Shown here: positions 1-40,299 of the stretch, one piece after another
Layout: each line of letters begins with the position of its first letter
How positions within the stretch are numbered: position 1 is the stretch's first letter
Translations under genes and position numbers: made by a program
Sequence record: PP856269
DNA from: Escherichia phage UFJF_EcSW4
DNA: 40,299 nucleotides
Strand: one strand, 5' to 3'
Notes under the pieces: model-generated
Seen by the model: the letters and a program-made list of their open reading frames with translations, nothing else
What the model was told of the DNA's origin: nothing
The model's database searches: none

Positions 1-286
1 CAAGAACCTCAAGTCTCCCCATAGGCCCTCTTTCAGTCTCGACCAAAGGCCCTACCCCAGTATATCATAAGGTTGGACCGATGGTCAAGACTTCAGGTCA
101 ACGATAGGTGGTGACTATGGCTTCGGGAAGGACGATAGGTGGTGACTATAGGCCCTCTTTCAGTCTCGACCAAAGGCCCTACCCCAGTATATCATAAGGT
201 TGGACCGATGGTCAAGACTTCAGGTCAACGATAGGTGGTGACTATGGCTTCGGGAAGGACGATAGGTGGTGACTATTGGTCTGTCT
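1..286. repeat. Direct terminal repeat, left copy (286 bp, identical to 40014-40299)
   Basis: First 286 nt (caagaacctcaagtctcc...gactattggtctgtct) recur exactly at the window end; T7-like phages carry direct terminal repeats. The true DTR may extend beyond the window edge. Confidence 0.9.
21..276. repeat. Two tandem 128-bp units (21-148, 149-276) inside the terminal repeat, each holding two copies of an 18-bp motif ACGATAGGTGGTGACTAT
   Basis: Read directly: ataggccctctttcagtctcgaccaaaggccctacccc...ggtggtgacta repeats head to tail with period 128; the 18-mer sits at 101-118, 132-149, 229-246 and 260-277. Confidence 0.9.
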
Positions 287-39409: not shown

Positions 39410-39432
39410 ACTTAACTATCACTATAGGGAAG
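39410..39432 (+). promoter_or_regulatory. Phage RNAP promoter (phiOR-position, right end)
   Basis: ACTTAACTATCACTATAGGGAAGACC; +1 at 39427. Confidence 0.75.
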
Positions 39433-39921: not shown

Positions 39922-39966
39922 CCTGACCTACGGTCCTTGACCTACAGTTGCTGTGGCCTACAGTAG
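39922..39966. repeat. Three imperfect TG(A/G)CCTAC(A/G)GT repeats just inside the right terminal repeat
   Basis: tgacctacggtcc / tgacctacagttg / tggcctacagtag; the CCTACAGT core is also in the array at 318-392 next to the left DTR. Confidence 0.7.
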
Positions 39967-40013
39967 TGACGATGAGTTTTGGACCAAAAGTTTGAGACCA
40001 CATCTCACAGTTC

Positions 40014-40299
40014 CAAGAACCTCAAGTCTCCCCATAGGCCCTCTTTCAGTCTCGACCAAAGGCCCTACCCCAGTATATCATAAGGTTGGACCGATGGTCA
40101 AGACTTCAGGTCAACGATAGGTGGTGACTATGGCTTCGGGAAGGACGATAGGTGGTGACTATAGGCCCTCTTTCAGTCTCGACCAAAGGCCCTACCCCAG
40201 TATATCATAAGGTTGGACCGATGGTCAAGACTTCAGGTCAACGATAGGTGGTGACTATGGCTTCGGGAAGGACGATAGGTGGTGACTATTGGTCTGTCT
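40014..40299. repeat. Direct terminal repeat, right copy (identical to 1-286)
   Basis: Exact identity with the window start, including the internal 128-bp tandem duplication. Confidence 0.9.

Follow-up and report, generated by a model that had tools for sequence, protein, structure and literature searches.

A 127-bp tandem duplication in the direct terminal repeat of the Escherichia phage UFJF_EcSW4 record: probable origin as an untrimmed assembler overlap

The sequence record of Escherichia phage UFJF_EcSW4 (PP856269) has at both of its ends a direct repeat within which a 127-bp unit stands twice in perfect tandem. The second unit is very probably an overlap of k = 127 that an assembler left untrimmed and that became fixed into both copies of the terminal repeat (TR), and the underlying object is most likely an ordinary K1F-type direct terminal repeat of about 181 bp. 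The window, meaning the whole stretch of 40,299 nt that was analyzed, is the genome of a K1F-like podovirus of the genus Kayfunavirus (T7 group, Studiervirinae), and its best relatives in INPHARED are about 95% identical to it genome-wide. We infer this origin of the second unit from the sequence itself.

Extent and ends of the terminal repeat

Comparison of the two ends of the window showed that its first 286 nt recur exactly, in direct orientation, as its last 286 nt. Two short stretches that belong to the repeat by homology lie outside this overlap:

1-286, + strand: left copy of the terminal overlap as assembled, exactly identical to 40014-40299 and aligned with the TRs of K1F, Vec13 and Peacock
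40014-40299, + strand: right copy of the terminal overlap, the same as 1-286 by exact identity
40003-40013, + strand: TCTCACAGTTC, by homology the first 11 nt of the true TR (T7/K1F-type left end)
287-297, + strand: TTTGAGTCTCT, the final 11 nt of the true TR as judged from homology to K1F position 179

Window positions 1-286 correspond to positions 11-157 of the K1F TR followed by positions 31-169, and the 127-bp unit is thus present twice. The motif TCTCACAGTTC is found only before the right overlap copy and is missing at the left end of the window, and TTTGAGTCTCT is found only after the left overlap copy and is missing at the right end. In the alignment, the K1F-type TR end, GAGTCTCT|ATCTGTAT, falls at window position 297, directly after the left copy. 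Judged by homology, either end of the window would be exactly 11 nt short of the true repeat. When the ends are placed in this way, the TR is 181 nt long with one unit and 308 nt long with two. The preliminary description had taken the 286-bp overlap to be the direct terminal repeat (DTR); the ends are indeed identical, but the full TR is not covered, and the end motifs lie 11 nt outside the overlap.

The left-end motif TCTCACAGT and the right boundary both form part of the homology with end-sequenced TRs in the genus. The likeness to K1F-type TRs is seen in the left end TCTCACAGTT, in the order of the conserved blocks, in the boundary just described and in the CCTACAG-type arrays. There are two differences: the window repeats TR positions 31-157, whereas the TRs of relatives measure 179-191 bp, and the window record begins and ends 11 nt inside the homologous ends. 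With 286 bp as given and 308 bp as completed, the TR of the window falls outside the length range of the genus, and it comes to 181 bp only once one 127-bp unit is removed.

Comparison of 20 TRs revealed conservation at the boundaries: one zone begins about 30 nt outside the repeat on its left and reaches about position 70, and a second extends from about position 150 to 10 nt past the right end; the center of the TR, including the first of two 18-mer modules, is variable in the same set. The T7-type terminase cuts at conserved TR boundaries, and the conservation found here would fit recognition and cutting at these places under the standard T7 scheme. In that scheme, each concatemer junction contains one TR, and the second copy is synthesized during packaging (PMC10438801). 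The suggestion that the region is used in concatemer processing is supported by its homology to the T7/K1F-type direct terminal repeat.

Two single-base differences from relatives lie inside the true TR. Position 40013, after TCTCACAGTT, reads CC as against C in all five aligned relatives, and positions 287-289, before GAGTCTCT, read TTTT as against TTT in relatives (TCT in K1F). Both of these homopolymer differences may be real, or they may be sequencing or polishing errors.

The 127-bp tandem duplication

In the TRF output the stretch 21-276, like its counterpart at 40034-40289, is a perfect tandem array: the period is 127, the copy number 2.0, the match rate 100% and the indel count 0. An exact offset scan gave 129 consecutive identities at an offset of 127, compared with at most 6 at offsets of 126, 128 and 129. 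Both methods therefore bear out the tandem duplication at 21-276 that the preliminary description had noted, but with a period of 127 and not of 128. Identity of this extent is far beyond chance. The array consists of the following parts:

21-147, + strand: 127-bp unit, copy 1, corresponding to K1F TR positions 31-157 and the sole copy in all relatives
148-274, + strand: 127-bp unit, copy 2, 100% identical to copy 1 and facing a clean 127-column gap in five aligned relatives
275-276, + strand: AT, over which the period-127 identity runs on for 2 nt (the end of the 129-identity run)
40034-40289, + strand: the two-copy array in the right terminal copy (TRF)

Positions 148-274 are given here as the putative untrimmed k = 127 overlap, the naming of either copy as the extra one being arbitrary. 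Because of the 2-nt AT overrun, the phase of the duplication is ambiguous, and the unit may equally start at 21, 22 or 23. The overrun itself fits a chance match or a match between imperfect repeats.

The junction between unit end and unit start reads GGTGGKGACTAT|AGGCCCTCTTT, and it can also be written GGTGACTAT|AGGCCCTC. Two imperfect direct repeats of about 20 nt, one at the beginning of the unit and the other just after its end, lie 127-128 nt apart (ATAGGCCCTCTTTCAGTCTC versus ATTGGTCTGTCTTTTGAGTCTC). Identity at the junction is limited to 2 nt (AT), the very start of these imperfect 20-mers, and the longer identical blocks within them are unused. The strongest direct repeat inside the TR is the 18-mer pair (18/18 identical, 31 nt apart), which the duplication leaves untouched. 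In a single-copy TR of 181 nt, the first base of the unit (window position 21) lies exactly 150 nt from the right end, a distance that hangs on the placement of the physical ends from K1F homology; the alternative phases of the unit start give 149 and 148 nt to the same inferred end.

Terminal repeats of related phages

A TR of 179 bp is annotated in K1F, Vec13, Peacock (PhageTerm) and EPr2, and exact end overlaps of 184, 189, 190 and 191 bp were found in other relatives. Run-off sequencing of virion DNA gave TRs of 183 bp in SH3 and of 190 bp in SH4 and SH5, near the 179 bp of K1F (PMC4925675). The 127-bp unit is 92-96% identical to its counterparts in K1F, Vec13 and LNA3, and the alignment contains a single copy in five of five relatives, the extra copy of the window appearing as a clean gap of 127 columns. 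A search with the unit matched 139 INPHARED records, only two of which (EPr2 and 216Ecol046PP) carry it in more than two places. About 30 IMG/VR stretches with a TR hold at most one unit each, and Logan contigs (k = 31) from relatives with 98% identity to the window across the right-end 1.2 kb have just one copy.

Searches for the duplication junction gave no exact match in IMG/VR (two patterns, with a degenerate position allowed), in the JGI metagenomes or in the GTDB genomes. When an 80-nt query centered on the junction was run against INPHARED, no record spanned the junction; only single-copy TRs were recovered, each matching in two pieces in reversed order. No independent assembly of the window's phage was found in the collections searched: its RNA polymerase, its terminase and an 84-aa ORF had no exact match, and the exact matches to ocr and to a 52-aa ORF come from relatives only. 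A genuine duplication might be expected to recur in a second isolate or to have diverged copies, and this one is unique to the window, with copies that are identical.

An assembly origin for the second unit

The length of the unit equals the maximum k of SPAdes, 127, and "127 bp artificial overlaps" have been documented (Philipson et al., PMC5923482). In addition, Elek et al. (2023) described repeats of about 79 bp near or within the DTRs of 7 of 10 SPAdes-assembled T7-like phages (PMC10438801). Those repeats did not match the read depth and were confirmed as artifacts by Sanger sequencing, the true DTRs being 180-183 bp (PMC10438801). The duplication in the window resembles the SPAdes overlap in its length of 127, its 100% identity, its two copies and the lack of support from related genomes, and it resembles the Sanger-refuted repeats of other T7-like phages in its location in the DTR region. 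It differs in that SPAdes overlaps classically stand at the two ends of a contig, whereas in the window they are joined in tandem and then copied to both ends.

A history of the following kind may be proposed. In a short-read de Bruijn assembly of a T7-like phage, both TRs would collapse and the genome would become a cycle, as is documented behavior for such assemblies. SPAdes would write the cycle as a contig with the same first and last k bases, where k is at most 127 (also documented). The cycle of the window's phage could have been opened at the 127-mer of window positions 21-147, as a toy simulation and the records of relatives suggest. With its first base 150 nt away from the inferred right end, this 127-mer would be the outermost one obtained from 150-nt reads anchored on the physical right end; coverage would jump at this k-mer, and errors at the 3' ends of reads would create the strongest spurious branch there. 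If the contig was then taken as circular with its overlap untrimmed, a perfect 127-bp tandem duplication would have arisen within the collapsed repeat. Calling of the termini may then have missed the true ends by 11 nt on the inner side, as could happen with reads clipped by 11 nt at their 5' ends, the clipping being an ad hoc assumption. The stretch between the called termini would have been written at both ends of the record, giving 147 + 139 = 286 bp; in the coordinates of a 181-nt TR this stretch would run from 12 to 158 and then from 32 to 170. Such a history would cover the period, the perfect identity, the 286-bp overlap and the symmetric loss of 11 nt.

The toy simulation was a k = 127 graph of a single-copy linear genome, with 150-nt reads, extra end-anchored reads and errors rising toward the 3' ends of the reads. 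Among the spurious branch vertices that this graph has within the TR, the strongest begins at window position 22, a start that matches one of the unit's three equivalent phases, and coverage rises about 60-fold there. Being a toy graph and not SPAdes, it would indicate only that a special k-mer exists at this location, which makes the location a plausible one for the opening of the cycle.

In sum, the length of the repeat is the k of an assembler (127), its two copies are without differences, its junction is missing from independent sequences of the same lineage, and assembly mechanics can account for where it lies (at 150 nt from the inferred end, compared with 151 nt in the SEA1f record described below, and a branch vertex at 22). 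The preliminary description had suggested that repetition in this region could make TR length variable between isolates. Modest variation does exist (179, 184, 189, 190 and 191 bp, along with the Pipis and GA2A records considered below), but the 127-bp duplication is unsupported as an instance of it. The view that the duplication is a heritable polymorphism is not supported, in that no other genome or contig searched has it, that its length is the SPAdes maximum k, and that its boundary lies exactly 150 nt (one read length) from the inferred genome end.

Alternative explanations

The duplication might instead be genuine and recent, the product of illegitimate exchange (with 2 nt of microhomology) or unequal exchange between TR positions 31 and 158 that generated a 308-bp TR. 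T7-type duplication of the TR during packaging would copy it to both ends, and it does stand at both ends of the given sequence; the copies would be identical because the event was recent, and out-of-register annealing of tandem units in concatemers would make the copy number unstable. The old imperfect direct repeats of about 20 nt, 127-128 nt apart, give the 127-nt period some structural rationale. As drivers of a real unequal crossover, however, these 20-mers are weakened by a junction that uses only their first 2 nt. The junction also passes over longer blocks and over the stronger 18-mer repeat, and slippage would be expected at the 18-mer pair, as in GA2A. TR length varies within the genus and the GA2A record differs in module copy number, yet no other isolate or metagenome contig has the 127-bp duplication, and T7 recombination should quickly remove a perfect direct repeat of 127 bp. 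Nor does a genuine exchange predict a period equal to the SPAdes maximum k or a boundary 150 nt from the inferred end. Two points count on its side. The symmetric 11-nt erosion of the ends would also be compatible with long reads of linear virion DNA as the source of the assembly, and on that reading the duplication would be real. The T7 group, moreover, has TRs of no fixed length, and one of 308 bp is conceivable. On balance, a genuine duplication is unlikely.

It is very improbable that the duplication reflects a heterogeneous stock, in which TR variants with one, two or more units coexisted, or in which a minority of genomes were duplicated, and from which the assembler reported two units. 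By reasoning alone, tandem units of length k would form a small loop in a k = 127 graph, the assembler having to guess how many times to traverse it, and the two ends of the GA2A record do have different module counts. This explanation also requires a real junction, yet the junction is without outside evidence, and both the equality of period and k and the 150-nt boundary are left unexplained.

Consequences for the record

If the second unit is an untrimmed overlap, as preferred here, the genome is overstated by 127 bp per end, both termini are misplaced by 11 nt, and analyses of DTR length, packaging signals and repeat evolution in T7-like phages would be misled. The practical value of the finding is that of a curation flag. 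A perfect two-copy repeat, with a period equal to an assembler k and a boundary one read length from an end, can serve as a diagnostic for other phage records. Should the duplication be real, a 308-bp TR with two perfect 127-bp units would be the only case among about 170 relatives, a modest curiosity as a copy-number polymorphism within a T7-type terminal repeat. It would then be a natural substrate for asking how the T7-type terminase and TR duplication handle a doubled core, and it could show how fast out-of-register annealing of concatemers alters copy number.

Breaks and probable artifacts at the ends of related records

The record of SEA1f (OR287805.1) is circularly permuted, its opening lying at TCTCCCC|CCATAGGCCC. 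This TR position is that of the window, and it is exactly 151 nt from the right boundary of the SEA1f TR; the ends of the record show a 2-nt CC redundancy. That of CLB_P1 (KC109329.1), likewise circularly permuted, was opened at a distance of 12 nt from the right end of the TR. Both are presented as "complete genomes", and both were opened inside the TR and contain no second TR copy. In metagenome 3300045988, two of nine contigs end in or beside the TR. A model of uniformly distributed breakpoints, under which an artifact would fall in the TR with a probability of about 0.13%, was rejected because published SPAdes assemblies also break at the TR; such breaks cluster there in relatives and in uncurated contigs.

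Two relatives' records, those with the unit in more than two places, show other terminal-region artifacts. EPr2 (OM256482.1, a Providencia phage) was considered as an independent duplication and rejected, its TR copies being exactly 500 bp apart: four 179-bp features annotated "DTR (short)" lie within 1-679 and 40583-41261, in pairs spaced by 500 bp at both ends. The round spacing suggests a padding artifact of a pipeline and not biology. The Escherichia phage 216Ecol046PP (PP328844.1) was likewise rejected as an independent case, for it has a chimeric block of about 490 bp and a perfect 141-bp duplication. Within its positions 1-1042, the 179-bp TR occurs twice (1-179 and 491-669), the filler between the two consists of sequence from the early-promoter region joined to the right-end flank, and a perfect 141-bp tandem duplication (759-1042) begins right after the 15-bp array. 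The default largest k of MEGAHIT is 141. Hand arithmetic on the coordinates gave no read-length relation for this 141-bp duplication. The whole of 1-1042 looks like an assembly artifact of the terminal region.

Small-scale length variation in relatives

The Pipis record (PV714130.1) has at about 40380-40405 an insertion of about 25 nt, GTTACTGCTCCTTGCAGTCACAGCC, in the TR unit relative to all other relatives; this is genuine small-scale variation in TR length. In GA2A (KT990215 / IMGVR_UViG_2757321099_000001), a 32-nt module, ACGATAGGTTGGGACTATTGGTGGTGGTGGAG, occurs three times in the right TR copy and twice in the left, and the right copy ends abruptly. Either the copy number of the 18-mer module really varies here, or the difference is one more problem of assembly. 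GA2A resembles the window in having the ACGATAGGT...ACTAT module, the one to which the preliminary description drew attention, head to tail within the TR. It differs in that its period is 32 nt and the module's own homology is used, whereas the duplication in the window has a period of 127 nt and 2 nt of junction identity; unlike the right copy of GA2A, moreover, the window keeps the normal two modules per unit.

The last 150 nt of the Kayfunavirus-like contig IMGVR_UViG_3300045988_000088 have TR positions 1-68 in common with K1F and an unrelated TR center, and that center has a perfect 31-nt direct repeat of its own (GACCGATAGGGCCTATATCTTGTGGTTGG, two copies). The center of the TR is replaceable while the two-module layout is kept.

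Modules, short arrays and promoters around the repeat

The 18-mer ACGATAGGTGGTGACTAT is found at 101, 132, 228, 259, 40114, 40145, 40241 and 40272, on the + strand only. The earlier observation that each unit holds two copies of this 18-mer is correct, and the two are 31 nt apart. The modules and the short arrays that flank the TR are:

101-118, + strand: 18-mer module 1 in unit copy 1 (again at 228-245), variable in relatives, for example ACGATAGGTCTAGGCTAT in K1F
132-149, + strand: 18-mer module 2 in unit copy 1 (again at 259-276), conserved among relatives
319-361, + strand: tandem array of a 15-bp sequence, ACTACCTACAGTCTA, 2.9 copies, just right of the TR
39925-39964, + strand: three short repeats of the CCTAC(A/G)G type, just left of the right TR copy and conserved in relatives

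The last 2-3 nt of module 2 (132-149) make up the duplication junction. The 18-mer pair is common to the relatives, with module 1 degenerate in most of them and perfect in the window and in Vec13, and it is a real, conserved feature. It bears no resemblance to the phage promoter consensus AAACTATCACTATAGGGA.

The 15-bp array is present in 2.9 copies in the window and Vec13 and in 3.9 copies in 216Ecol046PP and MirsaeidiM_Esher2. The T7 repeat is bordered by arrays of the CCTAAAG type. The array at 319-361 is like these short-repeat arrays bordering the T7 TR, and the CCTACAG-type arrays on both sides of the window's repeat likewise correspond to the CCTAAAG-type arrays of T7.

Sites resembling promoters of the phage RNA polymerase (AAACTATCACTATAGGGA, at most 3 mismatches) number 11 between 2733 and 39430, all on the + strand, as against 0.04 expected by chance. 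No site of this type, at the same threshold, lies in the TR, and between the TR and gene 1 there is none except that at 2733-2750. The possibility that the junction, GACTATAGG, had created a phage promoter was rejected: 0 of the 11 consensus sites are in the TR, and Vec13 has GACTATAGG naturally. The last promoter-like site (39413-39430) precedes the right TR by about 570 nt and is placed like phiOR in T7.

Each unit also has one sigma-70-like match, TTGACC-18 nt-TATACT with a TG extension, at 59-88 and 186-215 on the minus strand, directed to the left genome end; the site is a match to the consensus and no more. On the + strand, 830-859 contains a stronger early-promoter-like site, TTGACA-18-TAATAT.
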